Virus record (IMG/VR): IMGVR_UViG_3300020464_000022
Location: 1 to 26,969 of that record
Length of the DNA: 26,969 nucleotides
From: a virus
Lineage: Duplodnaviria; Caudoviricetes
Direction: 5' to 3' (one strand)
This document shows positions 2,813 to 26,333 of this stretch, piece after piece. The notes below the pieces were generated by a model. The model was not told where the DNA came from, searched no databases, and saw only the letters and a program-made list of their open reading frames with translations. Positions within the stretch are counted from its first letter, which is position 1, and each line of letters opens with the position of its first letter. A program made the translations under genes and the position numbers.

Positions 2813-3098
2813 AATTCACCTCGTCATCTTCCACCACAGCTGGCGGCTGTGTTGGCTTTTTTGCACCTTTTCCAGTAAACTTCTCAGCCTTCTCTCGGAT
2901 TTCCTCAAGAATCTGTTCAGGATACCTCCTGACCATAGAAATAGAATTGTTACGGCTGAGATCCAGGTAACCGGCATGAATGCCGTTCACTCGAATCATC
3001 TTAACATCAGTAATGATTTCGACCAGCTCAAATGAACCGTCAGCCTTTTCTATTTTCTTTCGGGCAGGGTGCGCCTCGATTTTAATTTTAGCCATCAT
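2796..3098 (-). CDS. Hypothetical protein between tail tube and chaperone
   Basis: 100 aa ORF coupled to the tail tube stop (TAATG) and overlapping the chaperone start. Confidence 0.7.
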   Translation of the reverse strand: MMAKIKIEAHPARKKIEKADGSFELVEIITDVKMIRVNGIHAGYLDLSRNNSISMVRRYPEQILEEIREKAEKFTGKGAKKPTQPPAVVEDDEVNYGDDD

Positions 3099-3505
3099 TA
3101 ACTTCCTGCGGTAAATGTAGGTTCAGTTACGCCGTCCCATTTAACATTCATGCGGCTCATCATTACGCCATCAGCTGTAAGCTCTGGTGATGACCAGGAG
3201 CTTACAAAAGCTGTGCCTGCAAGTGTGGCCGCTGTGGATTGGCCGCTTTTTAGTGGGAATGTGACTGTTACAGTGCCAGCCGCATCTGCAATTGGTGGCT
3301 GTGAGTCCGAGTCATAATAAAACTCAGCCTCAAAGTCACCAGGCTCTTGAAGTGAGCCAGCAATATATTCTTTAAAGTTAGTTGAATTTACTGCTGTGAC
3401 ATCGTGAGCCTCACGTGTGAACGTTGTGCCACCGATGCTGCTGTAGGTCGCAGTGAATGAACCAATTGTTAAGGTGGCAGAATTACCTGTTTGAGCCATT
3501 GTCAA
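3098..3505 (-). CDS. Major tail (tube) protein
   Basis: Thr/Ser/Ala-rich beta protein with DVT...KEYIAG.L.EPG pattern; follows the tail terminator. Start probably ATG 3499. Confidence 0.85.
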   Translation of the reverse strand: MTMAQTGNSATLTIGSFTATYSSIGGTTFTREAHDVTAVNSTNFKEYIAGSLQEPGDFEAEFYYDSDSQPPIADAAGTVTVTFPLKSGQSTAATLAGTAFVSSWSSPELTADGVMMSRMNVKWDGVTEPTFTAGS

Positions 3506-3509
3506 TTCC

Positions 3510-3926
3510 TTATGAAGTCGCTTCAGTTAATATAATTTTGAAAGTTAGATTTGTTACAAATGTAGCCTTGTCGCTGGAGTCAATTGGGTCCAGAAATTGA
3601 TGATCCATCGAATCTAAAAGGCACACGTCAACAGACTCATCACCAAAAGTGCCGCTTTCCCCATCCAGTGCAAGCCTTACTTTATCTCCGAGGTCCTCGG
3701 AATCAATATGTGTTTCTGCGAAACAACCAACTAACACACGAACCTCTGAAAGCCCAACCGGCCCAGTTAATCCTTGAATGTGATCGCTTGTAACTTGCAC
3801 ATATGCGATTGCTGGCAACGTTTCCTTCTGGCTTAGCTTATCTGGTCGAATTCGAGTGCCAACAATATCAGTTACATTTGAAACAGTAAGCAGCTTGGAT
3901 CGAATTGCAGGACCGGCTTTAGCCAT
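3510..3926 (-). CDS. Tail terminator/completion protein (DUF3168-like)
   Basis: 138 aa, VGTRIRP...LPAIAY..V..., VRLALDG motifs; synteny. Confidence 0.85.
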   Translation of the reverse strand: MAKAGPAIRSKLLTVSNVTDIVGTRIRPDKLSQKETLPAIAYVQVTSDHIQGLTGPVGLSEVRVLVGCFAETHIDSEDLGDKVRLALDGESGTFGDESVDVCLLDSMDHQFLDPIDSSDKATFVTNLTFKIILTEATS

Positions 3927-4470: not shown

Positions 4471-4814
4471 CAGGCATCCTCCTTGCACATCAACCACAGC
4501 TCCTGGTGCTTATCATCTTTGTTAAGTACGCTATGTATGTTAAGGGTCCGCGTAGCCAGATCATCCGTAAACTGCACACGCATCTCTGGCTTTGGCAGGT
4601 TGCCACTCGTTCTCGGTTTGCGAACAATCACCACAGCGTCAACTGTTGCATCAATTCCAACACCGCGCATAGTCTCACTGCCGCCTGTATCCATGACCGA
4701 ACCGGCCACGGTTATCAGATCCGTCCAGGAGTCTGAGATCTGACCGGCAGCATCTGCTGTTGTGCCACGCTGCTGAATCGTCACCCTCTGCCTTAGCTGA
4801 CCGGCTCGTAGCAT
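4470..4814 (-). CDS. Head closure / head-tail adaptor (SPP1 gp16-like)
   Basis: MLRAGQLRQRVTIQQ...DAAGQ...W and ...ELWLMCKE, typical of this family. Confidence 0.9.
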   Translation of the reverse strand: MLRAGQLRQRVTIQQRGTTADAAGQISDSWTDLITVAGSVMDTGGSETMRGVGIDATVDAVVIVRKPRTSGNLPKPEMRVQFTDDLATRTLNIHSVLNKDDKHQELWLMCKEDA

Positions 4815-5590: not shown

Positions 5591-6919
5591 CTATGCCTGT
5601 GTTAATTTCTTGATTGGATCTGTTCCGGCATCCAGCACTAGGCCATCATGACGGGAAAATGCTACGAATCCGGTCTGGTCATTGTCTCTGTATCGTTCTT
5701 CTAACCTATAGAGACGAATGGAACCAGCATCACGGATGATGTATTTGGACATGTCGCCAAATACAATCGTGACTTCGCCGGTAGCAATGCTGCTTGCCAT
5801 GTCCTGGTTGACTACCACTGGGAAGCCAAGCAGACGATCTGGCTCAGAAGCACTCAGGCCTGGTTGCCAGAGGTACTGGCCATCAGAATCTTTGAGCTTA
5901 CGAATAGCCAAAATTACATTGTCGTGCATCATAAAGCCAACACTAGGACCATTTCGGTAACTAGGATCGACACTATGAACAAGATCAATGATCTCATCAG
6001 CAGTGATTGCTGTTGCAGATGCAGCTGTAACGCCAGCACCAGCACCAGTCACGATACCTTGAGGCTTGCTGGAAGCATCGCCAGTGGTGAAGTGTTCAGC
6101 CGTAATACGACCGATCCGCTCACCAAGCATCGCGCCAACTTCGTTTGCTAGGTTGAAGGCACTGTCAGCCATCAACTCAGCAGAAACAAGAACACTGTCA
6201 GAGCTATATTTGTAAGCTCCAAGCGTTTTGCTTCCAAACGTTACAGCAGTTTCAGTGATTGCAGCGTTTTCAGCAAGCAATCGGCCTTTGTTGCCGGTGT
6301 CGTTTACAGTTGGCCAAGGAATGTTGTTGCCGGAAGCTGTACGCAAAATACGAGCAACTCGGCGAGGACCGCCAAAGGCAAGCATTGATTTTTCAAGCTC
6401 GTTTGAGAAGCCCTCTGGGACTAGATAGCCACCAGCAGAGTCTGTTCCAACACTTTGCGCTCGCGACTCAAGAACACCACCAAACCCTGCTTCACAGTAG
6501 GCAGGAGCCTGACCGGAAAGCCGGATCTCGTAGGAGCTTTGGCTTGGATCTACGCCACAACGTTGAGCAGCTTCTCGGTGTCGCTCGGTAATGTCGATAC
6601 CGTTCTGGTGCCTTGCCCATGCCTGAAAAGCAAGCTGGCGAGTTTCTTCATTGATTGGAGAAGCTGCTTGGCTTGTTACTTCACGCTTTGCCTTGTAGCT
6701 TTCAACGTCACGAGCTGCACTGATTTCACTCAGTCTAGCTGCAACGTCAATCTTTTCCTGCTCGGCAGTGATTTCATTAGCAATTGCATCATATCGTTCG
6801 TTGACCTGCTCCCAGGTTTCACGATCTTCAGCAGACCATTCAGATTGGCCATCAGCCAATTCTTTGAGTTGTGCAGCTAACTTGCCGCGCTCCTCTTGGA
6901 GTTGTTTAACATTGTCCAC
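5591..6919 (-). CDS. Major capsid protein, HK97 fold with N-terminal delta (scaffold) domain
   Basis: GGYLVPE, VSAELMADS, LKDSDGQYLWQP, LLGFPVV, FGDMSKY motifs; coiled-coil N-terminus. Start re-called to GTG 6919 (AGGAG 7 nt upstream) instead of 7006. Confidence 0.95.
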   Translation of the reverse strand: MDNVKQLQEERGKLAAQLKELADGQSEWSAEDRETWEQVNERYDAIANEITAEQEKIDVAARLSEISAARDVESYKAKREVTSQAASPINEETRQLAFQAWARHQNGIDITERHREAAQRCGVDPSQSSYEIRLSGQAPAYCEAGFGGVLESRAQSVGTDSAGGYLVPEGFSNELEKSMLAFGGPRRVARILRTASGNNIPWPTVNDTGNKGRLLAENAAITETAVTFGSKTLGAYKYSSDSVLVSAELMADSAFNLANEVGAMLGERIGRITAEHFTTGDASSKPQGIVTGAGAGVTAASATAITADEIIDLVHSVDPSYRNGPSVGFMMHDNVILAIRKLKDSDGQYLWQPGLSASEPDRLLGFPVVVNQDMASSIATGEVTIVFGDMSKYIIRDAGSIRLYRLEERYRDNDQTGFVAFSRHDGLVLDAGTDPIKKLTQA

Positions 6920-8659: not shown

Positions 8660-10347
8660 ATCAAATCCTTTGCTGTGGTGATTGCTTCCGCTTTGTATTG
8701 TTCCAAAATGGAGTCTACAGAACCCCTGAGCTGATCCGGTTGAACGCTTTGGAGTATGTCGTTTAGATTACGATTCAGGCCAGAATAGAATGAATCAACC
8801 AGTGAATGATGCAAATCAGCATAATCTCTTGAGCTAATCGAACAATAGAGCTTCAATTCGTCATCAAAACGCTGCTGAAATCCTGGCAGAGTATCAGTAA
8901 ACATCTGTTCATCAATCCAAGAACAGAATCTATTAGCTTTTGCCTTCTTGCATCGAGTTTTAACCTGAGCAATCACGCGCGTAATAGCTGCATCAATTGC
9001 TTTGTTGAGGAGATCCCTCATTTGCCGCTCATCATCAGACTCAACCTGCTCATCATCAGACTCAACTTGCTCATCATCTTCAACCTGGTCATCAGAGTCA
9101 TCATCCGCATCTAAATCATCGCTATTCGCCATATTCAGCGGTTGCATGAACTTATCACCAAGTCCATCATCCCTGGGATTCAGTCCAAGAAAAGCTCGCA
9201 CTTCATTTGGGCTTACAATGCCGTTATTGATGCCGATTTGCCCCACTTCATACTGCGTTTTGATGTCAGCCTGAATGAAAGCCCCAACATTATGCTCTGC
9301 AAAGTGCGTCTGGCCCTTTTGTTCATCCGTTGTAAGCAGCTTCAGCCAGACCTCAGATGCAATGGTATTAAGCCAAATGCTCAAACTGGAGTCTAAATAG
9401 CTGCGATTTTCCTGCTCCAGGCTGTTGTATGAGCTTTTTGAATCATCACCGAGCTTATGTGGTGGCAGATTAAAGAACCTGGCGATTTCCTTAACAAGCT
9501 CTTTTCGGACTGGTACCATCTGAGACTGCTCAGGAGTGAACTGCGCCTGGTGGAATTTGGCACCATCGCGGAGCAAAACAGTCTTAAACGAATTATCAAC
9601 GCCTTCATAGGTTTTGCGGAATCCCTGTTCTAGTGTGTCACTTGCCTGCTTGCTCATGCCAAGCGGCACTTCCAGAATTCCACCAATCCTTGCACCATTT
9701 GCAAAGAACTTGGATGCAAACTTGTTTGCTGCCAGAGCCTGTGCAAACGTTTCACGCGCTTTAAATATCAATTCGCAATCTGCATCACCTGCAATGCTGA
9801 TATTCTCCAGGTGCAAGATTGAGGAAGCAGGAAAGTTAAGCAGCTCGCCATTGATCTCAGTAACATAAATCACATCACCATTTGGCATAATGCGCGGTGC
9901 TGTTCGGTCCGGCAAAAGCGGAATCATTTCAAGCGGATTGCCAAATGGGTCACGGTCAATCAGTGCGTAAGCATTGCCCCAGATCAAAGCGTGTACCATC
10001 ATTCGTCGCCAGAATCTGTATGCCGTCATTTGGTGATTAGCTTGCCACCTCACCAGAAACTGTGCAGGATGTTCACGGTCAACCTCACGGCCACGCTCGC
10101 CAAGATCTGCCCGCCTCTTGTAGATGTTCAGAGGTATCTTTGCAACGTCACCAGAGATAAGGCTTACTGCCTGATAGACAGGTGCGAGTGTTAATGCGCG
10201 TGATGCACCAACCATCTCGCCTGCACTGGTTGAATAATCACCAAAAACCTGATTCCAAACGACCGGATCGCCTAATGGTATATTCGGATTTTCTAAGGCT
10301 CGGTGATCCTGACCAGGGTAGACGAACATCTCACCATTTGTAGGCAT
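8656..10347 (-). CDS. Portal protein (HK97 family) with C-terminal extension
   Basis: VYQAVSLISGDVAKIP, WGNAY, FFANGA, IARFFNLPPHKLG, SYNSLEQ, SPNEVRAFLGLNP motifs; extra ~150 aa tail. Confidence 0.95.
   Translation of the reverse strand: MPTNGEMFVYPGQDHRALENPNIPLGDPVVWNQVFGDYSTSAGEMVGASRALTLAPVYQAVSLISGDVAKIPLNIYKRRADLGERGREVDREHPAQFLVRWQANHQMTAYRFWRRMMVHALIWGNAYALIDRDPFGNPLEMIPLLPDRTAPRIMPNGDVIYVTEINGELLNFPASSILHLENISIAGDADCELIFKARETFAQALAANKFASKFFANGARIGGILEVPLGMSKQASDTLEQGFRKTYEGVDNSFKTVLLRDGAKFHQAQFTPEQSQMVPVRKELVKEIARFFNLPPHKLGDDSKSSYNSLEQENRSYLDSSLSIWLNTIASEVWLKLLTTDEQKGQTHFAEHNVGAFIQADIKTQYEVGQIGINNGIVSPNEVRAFLGLNPRDDGLGDKFMQPLNMANSDDLDADDDSDDQVEDDEQVESDDEQVESDDERQMRDLLNKAIDAAITRVIAQVKTRCKKAKANRFCSWIDEQMFTDTLPGFQQRFDDELKLYCSISSRDYADLHHSLVDSFYSGLNRNLNDILQSVQPDQLRGSVDSILEQYKAEAITTAKDLI
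9027..9078. repeat. 21 bp tandem repeat (~2.5 copies) encoding DDEQVES linker in portal
   Basis: gctcatcatcagactcaacct / gctcatcatcagactcaactt / gctcatcatc. Confidence 0.9.
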
Positions 10348-10348
10348 A

Positions 10349-11989
10349 TTAAATTAGCTCCACTGTGTTTGATTCATAGAAATCATAATTTGGCTGCTGT
10401 TCAGTTGAGATAGCTCGGCCGAGTGCCATGATTGCTGCAACAATGCCATCAATCTTCCGGTGATTGTCGGCCTTCGGTTTAACTGGCCTTTTGTTTTGAT
10501 TTACATCAGTCTTTATTTCAACATTTCCTGCTTGCCAACTCAATATCGGATTCTTTGGATGCTGAAGCCCACCGCTCATAACCAGCCGCTCAAACTCTGC
10601 CGTTGGTCCAGCGTAATGCACGATAGTTTGACGATATTGCACGCGAGGGATTCCCGTCTCATCTTCAACGCGCTGCGTGAGTTCTTCTGCATACATTGGG
10701 TCAAAAGCAAGCTCCAGCACATTAAACCGCTCCCCTATTTCTTTAATTGTCGCTTCAACTCGTGAATAGTCTATAACGTTTCCTTCCGTCAGCTCTAAAT
10801 GACCTACATTGGCCCATTCCAAGTAGGGGGATTTGTGATTGTTTTGCTCAGCTGTCTCCTTCGGAAGCCAGAACCACGGCCAGAATCTAAAGCTGCCATC
10901 ATCTTGTGGAAAGCAGGCAACTGCTGCCGTCATGTCTCTGGTTTTCGATAGATCTAAAGCAAGATAGCAATCAGAGCCTTCCAAATCTTCAAGCGTGTAA
11001 TTAACGCCACAGGCATTCCAATCTGATTGCCTCAGCCAGACATTCGTGGATGTAGACCAAACGTTGAGCCTGTACATTTTCCAGTTCTTGAAATCCGTTA
11101 GGCTGCGCTTTGCTCGCTCGTAACTAGTGCGGAATTCCTCACTCTTGATCGTGTGGCCCCAGGATGGATTGGCTTGTTTCCATATTTCCGGCTTACCACA
11201 CTTTTTGTCATTGGAATCTTGCGGTGCGTAGTAGCTTATATATAGAAATTCATCATCTATTATTTCGCCTTTGTTGACCGCTTCACCATAATCCCACTGC
11301 CGTTTACCGTATCCATTTGGATTATTTCCAGCAGTTGAAACCTCAAACCGGATCGGCTCCGCTCGGCTGGCTCCCATATACTCAAGCACTGTTGCAAGAC
11401 GTGAATCTACAACGTGAGTTTCATCAATAATAACCGAGCCATTTAGACCTTCCTGCCCGCTGATATTGTCGCCACTAAGCGTCTGATAGGTGCTGTTTGT
11501 GGGATGGTAAAGTATCACGCCGGTTGCTCTGTTCACGGTGCAAAGATTTGTAAGTACTGGTGACTGCTGCACCATCATACGCGCATGAGTATGAACAATC
11601 TGCGCCTGCTTGCCATCCTTAGCGGCTGAGTAAACTTTCTGCCCTTGCTCGCCATCTGCTGCCATGAGATACAATCCAACCATTGCCGCCGTTGGACTCT
11701 TGCCGTTTTTCTTTGGCACCCAGAGCGAGCACACTTTAAAGCGTCTAACTTCCCTATTCCAATCCTCTGAAAACTTAACCCAGCCAAACAGCCGCATAAA
11801 AAGCTCGTACTGCCAATCCATGATGTGAACCGGCTGGCCTGCATACTCACCTTCATACAAACGCAAATGGTCCTGGACAAATTCAATCATGTGAATGCCA
11901 CGTTCTTCATCTATGCGACATCCGGATTTTGCTGCACGCTCATCAGCAGCATTTTTAATCCAGCGTTTTGTGACCTTATCAATTGGCAC
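10349..11989 (-). CDS. terL: Terminase large subunit
   Basis: Walker A VPKKNGKS, Walker B IIDETH, STAG coupling motif, nuclease LALDLSKTRD and KIDGIVAAIMA. Confidence 0.97.
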   Translation of the reverse strand: MPIDKVTKRWIKNAADERAAKSGCRIDEERGIHMIEFVQDHLRLYEGEYAGQPVHIMDWQYELFMRLFGWVKFSEDWNREVRRFKVCSLWVPKKNGKSPTAAMVGLYLMAADGEQGQKVYSAAKDGKQAQIVHTHARMMVQQSPVLTNLCTVNRATGVILYHPTNSTYQTLSGDNISGQEGLNGSVIIDETHVVDSRLATVLEYMGASRAEPIRFEVSTAGNNPNGYGKRQWDYGEAVNKGEIIDDEFLYISYYAPQDSNDKKCGKPEIWKQANPSWGHTIKSEEFRTSYERAKRSLTDFKNWKMYRLNVWSTSTNVWLRQSDWNACGVNYTLEDLEGSDCYLALDLSKTRDMTAAVACFPQDDGSFRFWPWFWLPKETAEQNNHKSPYLEWANVGHLELTEGNVIDYSRVEATIKEIGERFNVLELAFDPMYAEELTQRVEDETGIPRVQYRQTIVHYAGPTAEFERLVMSGGLQHPKNPILSWQAGNVEIKTDVNQNKRPVKPKADNHRKIDGIVAAIMALGRAISTEQQPNYDFYESNTVELI

Positions 11990-12472: not shown

Positions 12473-13456
12473 TTAATCCAAAATCTGTTGCTTAATATTC
12501 AATGCAATTTCTTTCATGAAATTAGGGGGAACACAATTCCCTATTCTCGAAATAGCATTTTTACGATTGAAGAACTCAAAATCATCTGGAAAACTGGCAA
12601 GCCGTTTCAATTCATTCATAGAAAAATACCGCTTGCGATCTGGATGAACAATTCCAGTGACACCAATCTCCGACTTTACAATTGTTTGAACTGGCTTATC
12701 CCATTCTGACCACTGCAAACTCATATATCCTCCCTTATGTTTAGTAATTTTCTGAAACAATGTTTTATCTGTGGACCATTTTTTCGGTTGATATTTTGCT
12801 AATTCAGTTAGGCTATCTGGAAGCATCCGATGGTCATCATCATCTAATGATACATTTCTCAATGCTTGTCTAACTGTTTGAATTCCTGATTTAGCCTTTG
12901 GAAAAGATGGTTTAATTTTCAAGTCATTTCTAACACCAATGAAAATCAACCGGGGCCTTGATTGAGGAACATTAAAATATCCAGCATTCAACAGTTTTGC
13001 TTTTACATTGTAACCGGCACGTTTTAATTCGTTCATGATTTCAGCAAAGATCAATTTCATCTTTCCTTTAACCATGCCGGAAACATTTTCCATCACAAAA
13101 ACCTTAGGCTTCATACCTTTAAGCAATCGAATGTATTGTTCAAACAATCTATTCCTGGAATCATTCATTACACGTTTGCCAATAGTGCTAAATCCCTGGC
13201 ATGGTGGTGAGCCATCAAACACATCTAATTCACCTGGTTGAATTCCAGATAATTCTATACATTTATCAACAGACAGGTCTTTAATATCGCCAGCAAACAA
13301 TGTCGTATCAGAGAAATTAGCTCGGTATGTTTTCACAGCATCATCATCAAATTCTACTGCAAGAGCAACATTAAACCCTGCTAACTTATAACCCAATGAA
13401 GAACCACCGCACCCTGAAAATGTTGAAATTACATTAGGCTTACTTTGGGAACTCAT
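12473..13456 (-). CDS. C5-cytosine DNA methyltransferase (orphan)
   Basis: Motif I FSGCGG, IV GSPPCQ, VI ENV, VIII QSRPR, IX/X RLASFPDDF..IGNCVPP. Start re-called to ATG 13456, overlapping the ParB-like gene end. Confidence 0.95.
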   Translation of the reverse strand: MSSQSKPNVISTFSGCGGSSLGYKLAGFNVALAVEFDDDAVKTYRANFSDTTLFAGDIKDLSVDKCIELSGIQPGELDVFDGSPPCQGFSTIGKRVMNDSRNRLFEQYIRLLKGMKPKVFVMENVSGMVKGKMKLIFAEIMNELKRAGYNVKAKLLNAGYFNVPQSRPRLIFIGVRNDLKIKPSFPKAKSGIQTVRQALRNVSLDDDDHRMLPDSLTELAKYQPKKWSTDKTLFQKITKHKGGYMSLQWSEWDKPVQTIVKSEIGVTGIVHPDRKRYFSMNELKRLASFPDDFEFFNRKNAISRIGNCVPPNFMKEIALNIKQQILD

Positions 13457-15531: not shown

Positions 15532-15753
15532 CTATTCGATTACTTTCACCACTGGCTTCAATCCGAGGCTTTTTGCCATTTGCATTAAAGTGTCCCACGG
15601 TGAATCAGAATGAAACATTTCCGCGCGATACCAGGTACTTTGTGCCATGCCAGCCTGCTTTGCAGCTGCATTGACAGTTAGCCCTTTTTGCTCGCGTTTA
15701 TTCTGAATCATTATCAATAAATCCATTTTCTTTAGACTAGCCATTAAAATCAT
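15532..15753 (-). CDS. XRE/Cro-like helix-turn-helix regulator
   Basis: KREQKGLTVNAAAKQAGMAQSTWYRAE...TLMQMAKSLGL; start may be ATG 15744. Confidence 0.85.
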   Translation of the reverse strand: MILMASLKKMDLLIMIQNKREQKGLTVNAAAKQAGMAQSTWYRAEMFHSDSPWDTLMQMAKSLGLKPVVKVIE

Positions 15754-16075
15754 CCTCCGTGAATGGAGTTAAAGAAATCTCGTCAACGCCGGTTGGCTCA
15801 TATTCGCACTGCTCAAGATAAGCCAGAAAAGCCTCATCAACTATAATTTGTGGATAGCACTTTACAGCCGATTGGTCATATACGTTGGTGGCCAGAATCA
15901 CCTTGTAAGCGTCAACTTCAATGCCACCTTGCTGCTCATGTATCAGAATCCAGTTCCTAACAAAATCAACAATATCACGTGTCAGCTCCGGCCTGCCGCC
16001 TCCGTCTGCTTCAACGTCTTTAATCTTTTCAAAGTATTTTCTAGTAATCAACACCTTAGTTGTTAGTAATTGCAT
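15737..16075 (-). CDS. Hypothetical acidic protein
   Basis: ATG 16075 preceded by GAGGTGC-N3. Confidence 0.7.
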   Translation of the reverse strand: MQLLTTKVLITRKYFEKIKDVEADGGGRPELTRDIVDFVRNWILIHEQQGGIEVDAYKVILATNVYDQSAVKCYPQIIVDEAFLAYLEQCEYEPTGVDEISLTPFTEDDFNG

Positions 16076-16844: not shown

Positions 16845-17042
16845 TTAGTTAGTCAATAATGTTGTTAGTTTATGAATTACGTCGCAAGTCCGATCCAAAT
16901 CAAAAACAACATTTTTCATTATTTCATCATAGATCTGCTCTTTGCGCTCGTCGTCATATGTTGTCGAGTCGACAATAGTACAAACGATTGCTGATAACAT
17001 ATGCTGCTTCTCGGAAAATATATCCTTTACGCCTTTACTCAC
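16845..17042 (-). CDS. Small hypothetical protein (leader-repeat array)
   Basis: GTG start inside the repeated AGGAGAAATAAAGTGA leader. Confidence 0.75.
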   Translation of the reverse strand: MSKGVKDIFSEKQHMLSAIVCTIVDSTTYDDERKEQIYDEIMKNVVFDLDRTCDVIHKLTTLLTN

Positions 17043-17068
17043 TTTATTTCTCCTCGTTAGTTAGTTGT

Positions 17069-17344
17069 TTAATAACCGTAACATTCGTGTTCTATTTCTT
17101 CATCCAACAGCATTTGATATAAGCTGCTATGTGGTTCGGGATCATCCGGAAAAAACATCTCAGCTTCTTCCATATACTGTCTCTTGATTTCATGATTAAA
17201 GAAGAAAATGAAATCCGCTCCTCCATCACCTTCATTTTCACCTTCAGCAACTCTTATATCGTTTAGATAAATGTCACTCTTATATGCGATACCATGACAT
17301 GTTTCTAAATACTTTGTGTTTTTAACTTTGAATGCTGATTTCAC
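17069..17344 (-). CDS. Small hypothetical acidic protein (leader-repeat array)
   Basis: Start re-called to GTG 17344 in the repeat; contains ENEGDGG. Confidence 0.75.
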   Translation of the reverse strand: MKSAFKVKNTKYLETCHGIAYKSDIYLNDIRVAEGENEGDGGADFIFFFNHEIKRQYMEEAEMFFPDDPEPHSSLYQMLLDEEIEHECYGY

Positions 17345-17369
17345 TTTATTTCTCCTCGTGTTTGTAAGA

Positions 17370-17585
17370 TTAGGACCAACCATAACCGCTGCAGCAACGG
17401 ATATGGTTCATTGTTCTAGCAATCTGGTTTACATCCAAATCACCGTAGCTAAGAATATTACCGAAAATAAAATTCTTACCATTTCTTGATTTGTTGAATA
17501 GAAACTTTTCAAGGTCTCTCAAGTTATGAACGGTTGCAACATATTTATGATCTAAAAATTCGATTTCAATCATAAGAGGTTTCAC
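17370..17585 (-). CDS. Small hypothetical protein (leader-repeat array)
   Basis: GTG start in the repeated leader. Confidence 0.75.
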   Translation of the reverse strand: MKPLMIEIEFLDHKYVATVHNLRDLEKFLFNKSRNGKNFIFGNILSYGDLDVNQIARTMNHIRCCSGYGWS

Positions 17586-17611
17586 TTTATTTCTCCTTGT
17601 GTTGGTGGTTC

Positions 17612-17812
17612 TTAGATTTTAGTTTCCAAGAGTGTGTCGTTTGAATAGGTGAGTTTGTAGTAGTTCAATCCGTGTTCGAATGTTACTGTTGTCGAGCTAC
17701 AACCTGCTGGCTCGTTATCGAATACGGTCATCCAAGTTCCGTCGACGTTTACTTGGTCGCAAGGCTTTAGGCTGTATGGTGCGAAGTGGCGGATGTTGTT
17801 TTGAGTTGTCAC
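17612..17812 (-). CDS. Small hypothetical protein, first gene of leader-repeat array
   Basis: GTG start in the repeated leader; LKPCDQVNVDGTWMTV suggests a small beta-barrel. Confidence 0.75.
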   Translation of the reverse strand: MTTQNNIRHFAPYSLKPCDQVNVDGTWMTVFDNEPAGCSSTTVTFEHGLNYYKLTYSNDTLLETKI

Positions 17813-17842
17813 TTTATTTCTCCTCGTTAGTTGTTGTTAATT

Positions 17843-17874
17843 GTTATATCGGTATTTTAAGCGTTAACGCATAA
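17843..17874 (-). promoter_or_regulatory. Candidate promoter/operator of small-gene array
   Basis: TTAAGCGTTAACGCATAA near-palindrome (17857-17874, perfect 10 bp core) next to -10-like TAAAAT and TATAAC on the minus strand; no good -35. Confidence 0.4.
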
Positions 17875-17916
17875 CATGAACGCCCCAAAAACAGCCAATT
17901 AACCAAAAAAAGGAAA

Positions 17917-18471: not shown

Positions 18472-18774
18472 TCAGTAGGGCCACTTCTCTGCAAGTACAT
18501 CATTTACACCATCGATTCTACCAAGCCACCGGCCGAACTTACCTGTTTTGTTAGTTGTAATAGCAAACTCGCCATTTTCATCCTGGGCAAATCGTAGCAA
18601 CATCTCGAGCTCATCAGTTGCTTCTTTGAATCCAAGACGACCTCGCTCCGGTGTATTAACTCCATCCAATCTGATACGCACTACACAGAAACAATGAAAG
18701 CCTAAATCAATACGAGCATCAAAGGTGTCACCGTCCACCACCTTAATGACCTTGCAGCGTTTGTACTCACGCAT
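18472..18774 (-). CDS. SNase (thermonuclease)-like OB-fold nuclease
   Basis: VIKVVDGDTF..IDLGF, RIRLDGVNTPE, GKFGRWLG motifs. Confidence 0.85.
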   Translation of the reverse strand: MREYKRCKVIKVVDGDTFDARIDLGFHCFCVVRIRLDGVNTPERGRLGFKEATDELEMLLRFAQDENGEFAITTNKTGKFGRWLGRIDGVNDVLAEKWPY

Positions 18775-18955
18775 AATCACCCTCCGGCTCGTGAATCTTA
18801 TTGTTCATCTTTCTGAGCAACTCCTCCATCTGGCTCATCAGCTGCTTGGCAGCTAGCCTCTCCATAAAAGGCAAGTCCTCGTTAATTTCTTTCATCACCA
18901 AAATACTATCGCACAACAGATCATGTGCCTGCATCATCAATCGTTCTTCAGTCAC
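18767..18955 (-). CDS. Small hypothetical helical protein
   Basis: 62 aa, coupled to neighbours, GAGGGGG upstream. Confidence 0.6.
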   Translation of the reverse strand: MTEERLMMQAHDLLCDSILVMKEINEDLPFMERLAAKQLMSQMEELLRKMNNKIHEPEGDYA

Positions 18956-19212
18956 GATAAATCCCCCTCAAGTTGATCGCGTAATATGCTTTGAGCAAAC
19001 TGCAAATAATGAATGGCTTTGCCAAGATCCTCAATTGCACCTTCAACAGTTCCGGCCTTTAAATCATGCCGGTGCATGTACTTACCAGCATTAAACACAC
19101 AAGCCATAATTGCTGCCTGGTCACCGTATGCGTCACGGAATGTGTCGAAGTATTCAAGATGACCTTCCGGCCTTTTGTAGTGCCTGGCTGGTGTTACTTT
19201 TTCTAAATCCAT
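18952..19212 (-). CDS. DUF3310 / SaV-like protein
   Basis: P.HY, NAGKYMHR...K, EDLGKAIHYL motifs. Confidence 0.8.
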   Translation of the reverse strand: MDLEKVTPARHYKRPEGHLEYFDTFRDAYGDQAAIMACVFNAGKYMHRHDLKAGTVEGAIEDLGKAIHYLQFAQSILRDQLEGDLS

Positions 19213-19236
19213 ATCGCACCTCTTTTAGTTTATAAG

Positions 19237-19390
19237 ACAACTGCCCCCGCTCGCGCCTAAAGGAGGCAAAAGCACAAGCGGGAGCGAGTTGTTAGAGTTA
19301 CACACACGAAACTCTGGCTGTTATTTTGCCACCGGCCAGTGGGCAATGCCTGCCGCCAACAACTAACAACACAGCGGCTAAGCCCGGCAT
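19237..19390 (-). ncRNA. Putative structured multi-hairpin RNA with loops antisense to small-gene leaders
   Basis: Three hairpins (19346-19390, 19294-19315, 19237-19292) plus a possible pseudoknot fill a 182 bp intergenic gap; G-U pairs favour the minus strand. Confidence 0.6.
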
Positions 19391-19394
19391 CAGG

Positions 19395-19676
19395 CTAATT
19401 CGATTCTGGCGCCTGGTCACGTTTCTCTGCCTTTTCAATTTCATCCAGGATAGGTTGCACTAAATCCGTTGGCACTTCATTCTCACCAATAAACCGACCT
19501 TTAAGCTGTTTCCATCTGACAGCATGTTTGACAATGTGACACCAAAAGCGGAGCATACCGACACGCTCCATTCCTATACCATTTGCAAGACCAAATGCCA
19601 TTGATAGCAGTATGGGGCTATTGCTTCGCACCTTAAGCCGGTCGGAGCTGACCGGATCAATAAAGAATAAACGCAT
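19395..19676 (-). CDS. Hypothetical protein downstream of replication initiator
   Basis: 93 aa, TAATG-coupled to the initiator stop. Confidence 0.6.
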   Translation of the reverse strand: MRLFFIDPVSSDRLKVRSNSPILLSMAFGLANGIGMERVGMLRFWCHIVKHAVRWKQLKGRFIGENEVPTDLVQPILDEIEKAEKRDQAPESN

Positions 19677-20563
19677 TAGATTTCCTCCTGTTCAAGTTTG
19701 CTCATCAGTTTAGCTAGCTCCTCACGTTTTGCAAGGAGCTTGTTTTTATCTTTGCGACTAAGTGCACCATTTTTAAGTTGTCGATTTATTTCACCAGCCT
19801 CACGCATGGCCCTTTGATAACGATCATCAGCCAAATGGCCTGTAAGTGGTACTGCACCACCACGATCTTTAGCAGGTGCAGGAAAAATGTTTTTCCAGTT
19901 CATTACCACCGAATGCGTCACAGCCTTTTGCAATTGCTTTACAGTCTTAAACTCAAAACGTTCAACAGCTGCATTAAGCCTCTTAGCTGTAAAGGTTCCA
20001 TGCTCAGCGTTATAGTATTTCTCAAACTCTCTGACGGCTGACATTGCTAATTCAAACTGGTCCTCATCAAGCGCAGCGAAAAAAGATAAAGACCTTATAT
20101 CTTTTCTTTTTATTTTTTCTTTATTCTTATTCTTTCTTATATATTCTTTTTCTTTTAGTGCCGCTCTTGTTCCGTCTTTGTTCCATCCTTGTTCCACTCC
20201 TGTTCCGTCCTTGTTCCGCTCTTGTTCCACTCTTGTTCCAGCTTTTTGATAGTCATCGTTGTAAGTGCTCCAATTGCAAAGGCTTACGTGCGTTCTGTTA
20301 TGTTCCGTTTTTAGAACAATATTACCGAGCAGCTCGAGCTTTTTTAGTAAACGATACGCAGAACTGCGCCCACAATTTAATAGCTCAGAAACTGTAACTG
20401 TGCTTGTTATAAGCTCGCCGGACTCAAGAATAGTACCATCCGGCAATTGACCACGCTTGAAGTTAGCATTCATAAGTAGCCAACACCAAAGCTTCCAGAG
20501 CTTTTCATCTTTAAAGACAGCAGAATGCTCAGATTTTCTCCATAACTTTACAAAGCCATCCAT
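19676..20563 (-). CDS. Phage replication initiator / replisome organiser (wHTH)
   Basis: GFVKLWRK..., LWCWLLMNAN, GELITS...LLKKLELLGNI, NWSTY, then a repeat-encoded linker and Lys-rich tract, as in lambda O-type initiators. Confidence 0.85.
   Translation of the reverse strand: MDGFVKLWRKSEHSAVFKDEKLWKLWCWLLMNANFKRGQLPDGTILESGELITSTVTVSELLNCGRSSAYRLLKKLELLGNIVLKTEHNRTHVSLCNWSTYNDDYQKAGTRVEQERNKDGTGVEQGWNKDGTRAALKEKEYIRKNKNKEKIKRKDIRSLSFFAALDEDQFELAMSAVREFEKYYNAEHGTFTAKRLNAAVERFEFKTVKQLQKAVTHSVVMNWKNIFPAPAKDRGGAVPLTGHLADDRYQRAMREAGEINRQLKNGALSRKDKNKLLAKREELAKLMSKLEQEEI
20164..20240. repeat. Seven 11 bp iterons (core TGTTCC), candidate replication origin
   Basis: ctcttgttccg tctttgttcca tccttgttcca ctcctgttccg tccttgttccg ctcttgttcca ctcttgttcca, adjacent to a very AT-rich tract at ~20095-20157 inside the initiator gene. 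Confidence 0.85.
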
Positions 20564-20580
20564 GACTTTATTCCCCCTTT

Positions 20581-20640
20581 AAAAAAACCGTTGGCCGAGC
20601 TGCTGAACATCAGCGCGTTTCTTATACTCTCGACCAACGG
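20581..20640 (-). terminator. Intrinsic terminator-like hairpin before the initiator gene
   Basis: CCGTTGGTCGAG/CTCGGCCAACGG 12 bp stem followed directly by T7. Confidence 0.75.
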
Positions 20641-23460: not shown

Positions 23461-23500
23461 CCCCCACACACCGGCTGAAAGGTAAACCGATGTGCAGGGG
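23461..23500 (-). other. Strong intergenic RNA hairpin
   Basis: CCCCTGCACATCGG/CCGGTGTGTGGGGG, 14 bp with 3 G-U pairs only on the minus strand; loop TTTACCTTTCAG. Confidence 0.7.
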
Positions 23501-23778: not shown

Positions 23779-24085
23779 TAATCTTATCCTTTATAGAACC
23801 AAACATATCACCGACTTTGAAAGCACTGGATTTCATAAACAGCCAGACTGCACCCATAGCAATTAGAAACCACTTGATAAGGTTTGCTAGTGCATTCCGC
23901 TTTTCAGCAACAGCTTTTGACTTCTCAGCACTCGCACCAATCTTGGCTACTTTGTACTGGTACTTGTTATCTTTCTTTTCGATTTTAGTCTCTTGGCGAT
24001 CAACTCGAATGCTGCCGTTATCCTCAGCCTCACCAACGACAACAACAGGCTGCTGCTTACGCTTACTTCTTCTCTTAAAACCCAT
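23759..24085 (-). CDS. Basic membrane protein (lysis region)
   Basis: 108 aa, Lys-rich, one TM segment (LIKWFLIAMGAVWLFM); TGATG-coupled. Confidence 0.65.
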   Translation of the reverse strand: MGFKRRSKRKQQPVVVVGEAEDNGSIRVDRQETKIEKKDNKYQYKVAKIGASAEKSKAVAEKRNALANLIKWFLIAMGAVWLFMKSSAFKVGDMFGSIKDKISGIFSK

Positions 24086-25086
24086 CAGTAAATCCTTCCG
24101 GCTGGTGGACAGATAACCCAGGCGCCTGTTAGCTGTGCAATTTCTTTAGATTGAACAGGACAGCTTTCAACGAACCACTGTAATTTACGCTTCTTAAATT
24201 CATGTGCTTTGTATTTGCTGATTGCTCCGGGCTTGCTCCGCTCAGCCTCAGACTGCCACGGCCCCATCACAAGCTCATTATATTTGATGCCATGCTTCTT
24301 TAACCATACTTCTGTTATCTTGCGATCCTTTTCAAATCGAGCTGTGATAATTGCCGGGATCGTGTAGTTTCTTGGAAGGTGCAAAGGCACACATGGCTTG
24401 TTATGAGGTGGCTCCTGGTCCTCGCACAAGATGCCATCCATATCAAACGCACACTTTTCAACAAACTTGCTGTTGAAGAAATTCCACTCTAAGAAGTGTG
24501 GAGGTTCTAGCTCAACTCCAACCACGTCTATTTCAACCAGCTTTGCGTGAGGATTCTTGTACACTGCTCCAAACAGGTGTGGCTTTGGAAGTCTATGCTT
24601 CTTGCTTGTTGTTCCGAGCATCACTGTATCATCAACCAGCAACAAACGATTCATTCCATTCTTTACATCTTTAAACCTGCGACCATGCCCGCAATACAAT
24701 ACCTCTTTGGATTCGAGTGTATATAAAGGAAGGTTTAGATGAGTTGCAAGGATGCTGGCTGGAAGCATTCCAGATCTCGGAATACCACAGATTCCAGTAA
24801 CTGATGGTGGAATATGCTTAACCATTTGCAGAGTATCGGCTGCAAGCTGGCTGGTGGTAATCCACCGAGCATTGCTGAAAGCACTGGTAGGCATCAGGTT
24901 GTTTGCCTTTTGCCTCCTTTTATTACAGCCACCGCAAGGCTTCAAGCCAATTGCCTTTGTGACTCCTGCAATGGTGTCACCAAGACCTTTTTTCAGTGAG
25001 CAGTTGCGTCTGGTTGGCTTAGCTTTAACACGACCGCAATTGATGCAAGCCACACCGCTTTCATGCTTATTCCAGATGCAATCCAT
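24085..25086 (-). CDS. Cys-rich N-domain + type I phosphoribosyltransferase + HAD-like phosphatase fusion
   Basis: GLGDT...CGGC.KRR module; PRTase GIPRSG and LLVDDTVMLGTT; HAD motif I FDMDG, II IITAR, III YKA, IV-like FVES. Start re-called to ATG 25086 (TAATG). Confidence 0.8.
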   Translation of the reverse strand: MDCIWNKHESGVACINCGRVKAKPTRRNCSLKKGLGDTIAGVTKAIGLKPCGGCNKRRQKANNLMPTSAFSNARWITTSQLAADTLQMVKHIPPSVTGICGIPRSGMLPASILATHLNLPLYTLESKEVLYCGHGRRFKDVKNGMNRLLLVDDTVMLGTTSKKHRLPKPHLFGAVYKNPHAKLVEIDVVGVELEPPHFLEWNFFNSKFVEKCAFDMDGILCEDQEPPHNKPCVPLHLPRNYTIPAIITARFEKDRKITEVWLKKHGIKYNELVMGPWQSEAERSKPGAISKYKAHEFKKRKLQWFVESCPVQSKEIAQLTGAWVICPPAGRIY

Positions 25087-26333
25087 TAACCAACCTGCAC
25101 ACTCACAGTAACAACATCTGTTTTGCAATTTGTAGTGTTCATTGTTTCTGTCCAGGTCTCTGTGCCATCAAGCGCACAAGCTGCTGGATACGTTTGGCCT
25201 GAATCATACTGCCAGACGATACGCTTACTGCTGTGGCCTATTTCTAATATTTGCAATTCCCATAGAGCGTTATTCGTTGCTAAATCCTCGGAAACGCATA
25301 ACCTAACGGTCGTATATCGCGCACCCTGAAACTCTACGCCAGAAATTTCATAATCACACTCAAAGAACGTGGTTGCATAACCAGCTTCAAATTCCCAGCA
25401 GCAGCCCCATGTCTGCGTGACTGTATAAACATCATCAACATCAGTACAATCCAAACAAAAGCCACCGCCGGTAGTGCTTGGATTGCTATCCTCAAAACCA
25501 TCTAATGTTACATCGAATTCCATTGGCAGCGTATCACTACAGCACAACCGCTGGCAGGCTTCACAGTTGCTGTTTTCGTCTGCTGTACGCTCAAGCCAGA
25601 ATTCTTGTAAACGCATACCATAATCATCATCTGACCTGCTGCCGCCAATGTAGCCATAACCGCCCTTCATACCAACACCGGCCTGTTTTCCACCTTTATT
25701 TGTAATAGCCGCTTCCGCAAAGAACGATGTATCTTGGTCGTCAAATGGTGGCCAAGGATTACCATAAGATGCGCTTGCACTGAAGATGTTCAGCTGCATT
25801 GCAGTCGTTGACTTGCAAACGACAATATAAAGCTCAGGCCATCCGGCTAAATCACCAGAATCCACTTTTATAGTTCCACCAATTTGCGTATCACTGCCAG
25901 AGGATCTGTCATAGAACCGCACTTCAATTGAATCACCTGTGCGGCTGCCATCGTGATCTATATCAACATAGTGAAAGTTATCTTCATCAACGTAGTCCAC
26001 AACCATTCGTGCTGTCGCTGTATCTGTGGCTGTGGCCCACAGAAACTTGGCACCTACTACACAGTTATAAGGACTCTCTGTTATTTCAGTTTTGCAGATT
26101 AAAAAGCCATCACCGCAGGCATAACCGATCTCCCCAAAGGAAACGGTTGAATCAAACGCATCAGCAATCCAAGGAACACTACTGCTTGAAGGCTCCTCTA
26201 TCTCATGCCAGTAAGTGGAATATATATCATTGACCTCTGTTCCACGGCAATCATCGTGATAGATAATACACTCTTTGCAACAGCAATTAGGGTACCACCA
26301 TTTTCTGGACCACCACGGAAAAGGTGCAGGCAT
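25086..26333 (-). CDS. Cys-rich acidic beta protein, putative tail tip/receptor-binding protein
   Basis: About 20 Cys incl. N-terminal PNCCCKEC; aromatic/Thr-rich, lectin-like composition. Start re-called to ATG 26333 (TAATG). Confidence 0.6.
   Translation of the reverse strand: MPAPFPWWSRKWWYPNCCCKECIIYHDDCRGTEVNDIYSTYWHEIEEPSSSSVPWIADAFDSTVSFGEIGYACGDGFLICKTEITESPYNCVVGAKFLWATATDTATARMVVDYVDEDNFHYVDIDHDGSRTGDSIEVRFYDRSSGSDTQIGGTIKVDSGDLAGWPELYIVVCKSTTAMQLNIFSASASYGNPWPPFDDQDTSFFAEAAITNKGGKQAGVGMKGGYGYIGGSRSDDDYGMRLQEFWLERTADENSNCEACQRLCCSDTLPMEFDVTLDGFEDSNPSTTGGGFCLDCTDVDDVYTVTQTWGCCWEFEAGYATTFFECDYEISGVEFQGARYTTVRLCVSEDLATNNALWELQILEIGHSSKRIVWQYDSGQTYPAACALDGTETWTETMNTTNCKTDVVTVSVQVG

Follow-up and report, generated by a model that had tools for sequence, protein, structure and literature searches.

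A predicted structured RNA in the replication operon of a tailed phage carries loops complementary to the leaders of a small-gene array

The CI RNA of phage P4 is a phage antisense RNA comparable to C4, and GcvB pairs with its targets through a seed that is G/U-rich and linear. The shut-off of the earliest genes, in many phages, is usually ascribed to protein repressors. The C4 antisense RNA of P1 and P7 is described as using one loop upstream for specificity and another over the RBS (PMC5320573). GcvB is a chromosomal Hfq-dependent small RNA, and it silences ACA enhancers adjoining the SD (PMC3879156). Two host regulators repress multiple targets: S. aureus RNAIII masks an SD and engages in a loop-loop contact (PMC2837412), and the mycobacterial 6C RNA acts via C-rich loops without a chaperone (PMC6486639). 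Lambda PreS/LPR1 is described as a phage base-pairing small RNA of the lytic cycle (10.1101/2024.10.31.621285). In the titles and abstract openings of the literature, a corpus covering few subscription papers, we found no report of a phage RNA silencing the leaders of the phage's own early genes.

The locus analysed here lies in a stretch of DNA of 26,969 nt from an uncultured marine phage, analysed as a whole and called the window below. It encodes a predicted structured RNA which, compared with C4 (PMC5320573), is likewise a phage RNA with several stem-loops, a variable loop upstream of the SD, one over the RBS and a probable origin by cutting from a longer transcript: loops A and B are complementary to sequences upstream of SDs, and loop C is an anti-SD that is not target-specific. 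C4 is ~77 nt long, has three stems and is released by RNase P, whereas the element is ~160 nt long with four predicted hairpins. Moreover, a pseudoknot is predicted and no closing tRNA-like stem is visible, and the candidate targets are four leaders 1.4-2.3 kb downstream rather than an immunity operon. The likeness to GcvB (PMC3879156) concerns the targets, which are CA-rich, ACA-containing enhancers just upstream of the SD of several mRNAs. The loops of the element are complementary to such ACA-rich enhancers next to the SD; in contrast to GcvB, the element is a phage RNA whose seeds are divided between two loops, and no sequence family connects it to GcvB. Loop C resembles the C-rich loops of RNAIII and 6C, but the specificity of the element seems to come from its GU-rich loops and not from the C-rich one. 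Finally, the targets of PreS/LPR1 are host genes, whereas the best targets of the element are the phage's own leaders.

The window comprises most of a tailed phage genome, and nearly all of its genes lie on the minus strand, which is also the coding strand of the element (Table 1). Another member of the same protein cluster resides on a 28,993-base contig, and marine RNA libraries of two studies contain pieces at least 99% alike to the window. GenBank phages yielded no homologue of the element, and the terminase relatives found there are only ~35% identical. Past the DUF3310 gene, the genes follow in the order nuclease, RusA-like resolvase and small genes, with an HTH gene as operon end. Four of the small genes (16845-17042, 17069-17344, 17370-17585 and 17612-17812) have a common 27-nt SD/start repeat; no PHROG family was found for their proteins. 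The leader of the 17812 gene holds the most ACA/AAC/CAA triplets of 45 starts, and a 10-nt leader motif occurs 8 times at up to one mismatch, counting both strands, against 1.9 expected. Because the gene order and the strong promoter consensus in the related locus L097 point that way, the array is probably an early operon. Palindromes are present in the spacer of the duplicated array promoter of L097 (1830-1865 and 2290-2325), and together with the one in the window (17854-17877) they are candidate operators for the HTH protein encoded at 15532-15753. ARAGORN reported 0 tRNA or tmRNA genes in the window. Two further observations concern the replication region. A run of 11-bp direct repeats, like origin iterons, lies within the replication gene (20147-20251), and L001, another related locus, has a different repeat unit at the matching place. 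Upstream of the replication gene, a long branched hairpin followed by a U run (20575-20640, minus strand) has counterparts of similar predicted shape and different sequence in L001 (~1140-1200) and in a third relative, L048 (~8985-9045).

Table 1. Features of the element, its predicted helices and its candidate targets (window coordinates).
Feature	Position	Strand	Remarks
Element, predicted structured non-coding RNA	19229..19391	-	begins right past the stop codon of the 93-aa gene
93-aa gene, no known family	19395..19676	-	directly upstream of the element, just after the DnaD-like replication gene
DUF3310 gene	18952..19212	-	directly downstream of the element; Pfam PF11753, 29.7 bits
Helix P1 (19386-19390 with 19346-19350)	19346..19390	-	encloses hairpin A; in L048 one double change (G-C to C-G)
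Predicted 4-bp pseudoknot (19381-19384 with 19334-19337)	19334..19384	-	P1 bulge to A2 loop; L048 has two changes that keep the structure, one double, one single
Hairpin A with GU-rich loop A (19357-19373)	19352..19378	-	stem with two double changes (C-G to U-A); loop variable between relatives
Hairpin A2	19326..19346	-	one double change (U-A to A-U)
Hairpin B (loop core 19300-19308)	19294..19315	-	core identical in L048; stem not conserved
Hairpin C, long stem, anti-SD loop 19257-19271	19237..19292	-	pair probability 1.00 and 0.95; five double changes
Array of four small genes	17037..17833	-	27-nt SD/start repeat at 17037, 17339, 17580 and 17807
Candidate array promoter	17845..17885	-	palindrome 17854-17877 in spacer; apparent resemblance to the duplicated promoter of L097
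Leader site, gene 17612-17812	17826..17836	-	exact 11-nt loop A complement that adjoins the SD on its 5' side; 13 bp including one G-U
Leader site, gene 16845-17042	17060..17069	-	10-nt loop A complement; rank 2/46
Leader site, gene 17370-17585	17598..17610	-	loop A 11/13, 7-nt perfect run; rank 5/46
Leader site, gene 17069-17344	17356..17367	-	loop B (19298-19309) 11/12; rank 1/46
Extra loop A site, end of gene 17042	16860..16870	-	11 nt; 37-47 nt upstream of the 16823 start
Extra loop A site, inside nuclease gene	18543..18558	-	15/16; 40-55 nt before the 18503 start; sequence changed in L001 and L048
Extra loop A site, near start of gene 15737-16075	16059..16070	-	9 nt

The 182-nt spacer that holds the element shows 0/182 differences between the window and the loci L001 and L047, and the third codon positions of the two flanking genes differ at 19/94 and 24/87 (43/181 in all). 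L001 and L047 are mutually identical over 725 nt, and L046 is the same strain as the window and adds no independent comparison. These substitution patterns indicate that the spacer element is under constraint, with the proviso that the spacer identity with L001 could be a recombination tract, because the identity run extends over 235 nt and the next longest over 65. A diverged copy is carried by L048, which is ~72% identical around the element, and the structural comparison is therefore between only two sequence types, the window type and L048. From one to the other the stems were rewritten, the 9-nt core of loop B stayed identical, the anti-SD core of loop C was kept and loop A was replaced. 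Reading the element as a coding ORF (19298-19444) was rejected, as this frame has neither silent changes in L001 nor a conserved peptide in L048. Relative to the window, L001 has an inserted 283-aa gene before the nuclease (2996-3847), and L048 has an inserted 70-aa gene (5997-6209) and a probable methylase start near 11569.

Two other related loci show no element at this place. L097 shares the gene order of the window and likewise has a CA-rich leader array, with a promoter following RusA, and its 10.9-kb fragment shows no element at the syntenic site; thus the leader motif is a family trait that does not depend on the RNA element. L092 has one small gene at the place of the array, with no CA-rich leader array and no element. 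A covariance model built from the window sequence alone detected L048 at 70.5 bits; model R2, run on 100 of 134 loci (1.09 Mb), recovered L048 only, and the sequence-only model R1 returned nothing in 15 loci. The initial annotation had proposed a check of Rfam membership, which gave no family for the element in scans that included C4, GcvB, RNAIII and 6C; the C4 models had no match in the window at E<=1, nor in either element type at E<=10. Simple patterns were discarded as search tools. A 16-nt loop C pattern hit 43 loci, of which one was real (L016, identical to L001) and the rest looked like ordinary RBSs read in reverse complement; a loop B-gap-loop C pattern hit 34 loci, only the already known one being real; and none of the 30 loci with the leader pattern had a protein link to the window phage. 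A GTDB match (L080) was set aside for want of any other link to this phage, and six of the nine supplementary files of PMC10690425, those searched, contained no match to the motif. On a 1.5-kb viral contig (L119), an unrelated, strongly folded stretch (1267-1458, -82.6 kcal/mol) matched the loop pattern and not the model.

The minus-strand transcript had originally been described as three hairpins. A structured RNA on that strand is almost certainly real, but the three-hairpin description is superseded by four predicted hairpins, an enclosing helix and a likely pseudoknot. Folding both strands, as had been suggested, favours the coding strand in the window (-70.7 versus -54.6 kcal/mol) and in L048 (-62.1 versus -52.1 kcal/mol). 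Helices P1, A, A2 and C and the pseudoknot were derived by hand comparison of the two sequence types. Among the 34 pairs compared, 23 are unchanged, 10 are double changes, 1 is a single change and 0 are broken, a count that leaves out one pair of helix C (bulged in L048) and helix B (not alignable). Since the helices had been hand-picked beforehand, null trials with free helix choice were run on the 5' domain (53 columns, 13 substitutions); its 5 double changes were reached in 0/5,000, 17/5,000 and 39/3,000 trials under three nulls. Two other treatments were abandoned: pair counts from alignment A6, in which six weak, unrelated or reverse-strand matches had been fitted to the model, and RNAalifold on a MAFFT alignment, in which a register error hid the 5' domain. 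The pseudoknot between the P1 bulge and the A2 loop is likely, judging from the two sequence types.

Hairpin A, one of the three hairpins first described, is supported by covariation with L048, but it is missing from the minimum-energy fold and has a pair probability of 0.00 in the window sequence. In that fold, which lies ~10 kcal/mol below the covariation model (taken without the pseudoknot), loop A is buried by pairing with the segment after A2; the buried form may reflect a faulty prediction or a genuine closed state of the RNA. Hairpin C is possibly also a terminator, because a U run follows it in L048; the window has no clean U run and no terminator was called there. A second long hairpin with a pyrimidine/C-rich loop occurs at 23461-23500 of the window (minus strand), and at the same place in L048 (5936-5980) and L092 (~4620-4660). 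The window copy has a loop similar to loop C of L048, and the hairpin probably represents a terminator class of this phage's family.

The pairings of loop A with three array leaders and of loop B with the fourth, proposed from inspection of the window, are all present as claimed. Among 46 start regions, loop A ranks its three leaders 1, 2 and 5 and loop B ranks the remaining one first, so that the two loops specifically favour the four array leaders; loop A places that remaining leader (17344) at 35/46. At the top-ranked site, in the 17812 leader, the duplex energy is -17.0 kcal/mol and the predicted unpaired probability 0.92, and the array leader sites in general are predicted to be open (0.70-0.92). 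On the coding strand, an 11-nt complement to one or other of the four leaders occurs in loop A only, and the 17-mer from 19374 has the most complementary sites of at least 10 nt (5) among 26,953 coding-strand 17-mers. Five of the six loop A sites of at least 9 nt fall within 16.0-18.6 kb, and all six lie no more than ~60 nt from a likely start, a zone that makes up ~14% of the window. The site at 16059-16070 may be a leader, because 3/4 homologues of the gene start seven codons later, and the true start may then be near 16054; a further 9-nt site lies near 629.

How much of this is composition was assessed with the shuffled controls that the initial annotation had called for. Base shuffles of loop A reached 11 nt in 111/19,999 cases, which favours the claim, but dinucleotide shuffles did so in 687/19,980 (3.4%), so that the loop A signal is largely a matter of GU versus CA composition, as the accompanying caveat about CA-rich leaders had anticipated. 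The sites are not independent either, because the targets include two leaders that nearly duplicate each other. Duplex energies computed over the whole genome with G-U pairs allowed proved unspecific (for loop A, the 17812 leader came 2nd on the coding strand; for loop B, the 17344 leader came 12th), and the start-region and Watson-Crick tests were used for this reason. Loop A is a candidate specificity guide. The L048 version of loop A forms only 4-5 nt runs with the four leaders of the window, which means that, unless the model fails, the leaders of the L048-type phage must differ from these. The available 11.6 kb of L048 end before the array, and its 23 start regions, several placed only approximately, contain no strong target (best perfect run 8 nt). 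This loop complements instead an A-rich AUG context, the best of 9 starts being the 16823 start of the window (8 nt).

For loop B, base shuffles reach 11 matches about once in 5,000, and the corresponding region of L048 pairs with the 17344 leader of the window at 11/13. A one-mismatch complement of the loop B core lies at the SD edge in the window (1/2 coding-strand sites), and the array leaders of L097 hold 2/3 of the sites there; the background is not small, because four one-mismatch sites occur on the non-coding strand of L097. Loop C had been proposed to pair with the 23053 start across a 2-nt bulge. The pairing exists but is not specific, that start ranking 5/46 and the array genes 23-28. 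The directly downstream start, of the DUF3310 gene, ranks higher, at 2/46 in the window and 1/23 in L048 (8-nt perfect). By this sequence ranking loop C is a conserved but generic anti-SD and not array-specific, in agreement with the second original caveat. The best perfect match of loop C (13 nt, 24908-24920, minus strand) falls inside gene 24085-25128, at an internal SD-like site ~18 nt before an AUG.

As the best explanation of the observed conservation, compensatory changes, complementarity and target ranks, we infer that the replication operon yields an antisense RNA akin to C4 and GcvB, which would cover the CA-rich leaders of the probable early operon, a reading to which we give an even chance; for antisense control of the array leaders, where the sequences predict repression, the balance is equally level. 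The RNA would likely be made with the replication-operon transcript and be released as a 3'-UTR product ending at hairpin C. P1, the pseudoknot and A2 would form a scaffold that keeps loop A open; this loop would cover three of the leaders, in registers that differ, and loop B the remaining one. By pairing with the CA-rich enhancers just upstream of the SD, the two loops would lower translation of the four small genes, with loop C perhaps adding a generic SD contact, and the early array would be damped once the replication genes are on. Pairing may occur in trans or, because the targets lie downstream on the same strand, in cis within a read-through transcript. A bolder version is tentative and somewhat doubtful: a reprogrammable multi-guide RNA with a conserved, pseudoknotted scaffold, a guide loop (A) that is exchanged in step with the turnover of the small-gene cassettes, and fixed anti-enhancer (B) and anti-SD (C) loops, which would shut off the whole early array and belong to a class of early-gene shut-off RNAs that is widespread among phages and as yet undescribed.

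The ranking of the DUF3310 start by loop C in both sequence types, together with the U run behind hairpin C in L048, suits a cis control element of the replication operon, in which hairpin C would terminate or protect the transcript, the anti-SD loop would pair with the DUF3310 SD and the 5' domain would bind a protein such as an antiterminator, the leader complementarity being a by-product of GU-rich loops. The recurrence of a long pyrimidine-loop stem at 23461-23500, in L048 and in L092 shows that such hairpins recur in the family. We regard this as rather unlikely, because it leaves unexplained why loop A is the single best complement to the array leaders and why loop B picks the leader that loop A misses; moreover, the window has no clean U run. 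A protein repressor could also perform the shut-off, given the palindrome in the array promoter and the HTH gene at the operon end.

Improbable, in our estimate, is a generic anti-initiation RNA directed at host mRNAs or ribosome loading, whose loops would mirror the CA-repeat enhancer, the SD and, in L048, the start-codon context, with the phage's own leaders incidental or secondary. The conserved generic anti-SD of loop C and the A-rich AUG context complemented by loop A of L048 speak for it, and a phage small RNA with host targets is known (10.1101/2024.10.31.621285). An exposed anti-SD would, however, also strike the phage's own middle and late genes, and the exact 11-nt and 11/12 matches are to phage leaders. 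Very improbable is an origin of the complementarity in shared ancestry or in a DNA-level motif (an inverted leader copy or a protein-binding site), with loops that play no pairing role. The excess of the 10-nt leader motif on both strands is in its favour, but G-U pairs and compensatory changes favour an RNA of the coding strand, and the loop B and C sequences persist while the stems are rewritten.

If the antisense reading is true, a compact RNA acting over the shared enhancers of a hypervariable array would amount to a shut-off at the RNA level and would explain why such arrays keep similar leaders, and a scaffold with a swappable loop could serve as a small, programmable repressor of translation. 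Should the targeting prove wrong, the element still represents a structured phage RNA family absent from Rfam. RNA run X3 contains one 166-nt contig of depth 3.1 that spans 19229-19388, along with three more contigs of similar length and depth elsewhere; it is a weak hint only, because the contigs show neither strand nor ends and the library may contain DNA. Runs X1, X2 and X4 contributed no contig from the element, a negative that does not speak against its presence. In a distant complete relative (L094), a small ORF at 13177-13353 encodes what we take to resemble a CsrA-type protein.
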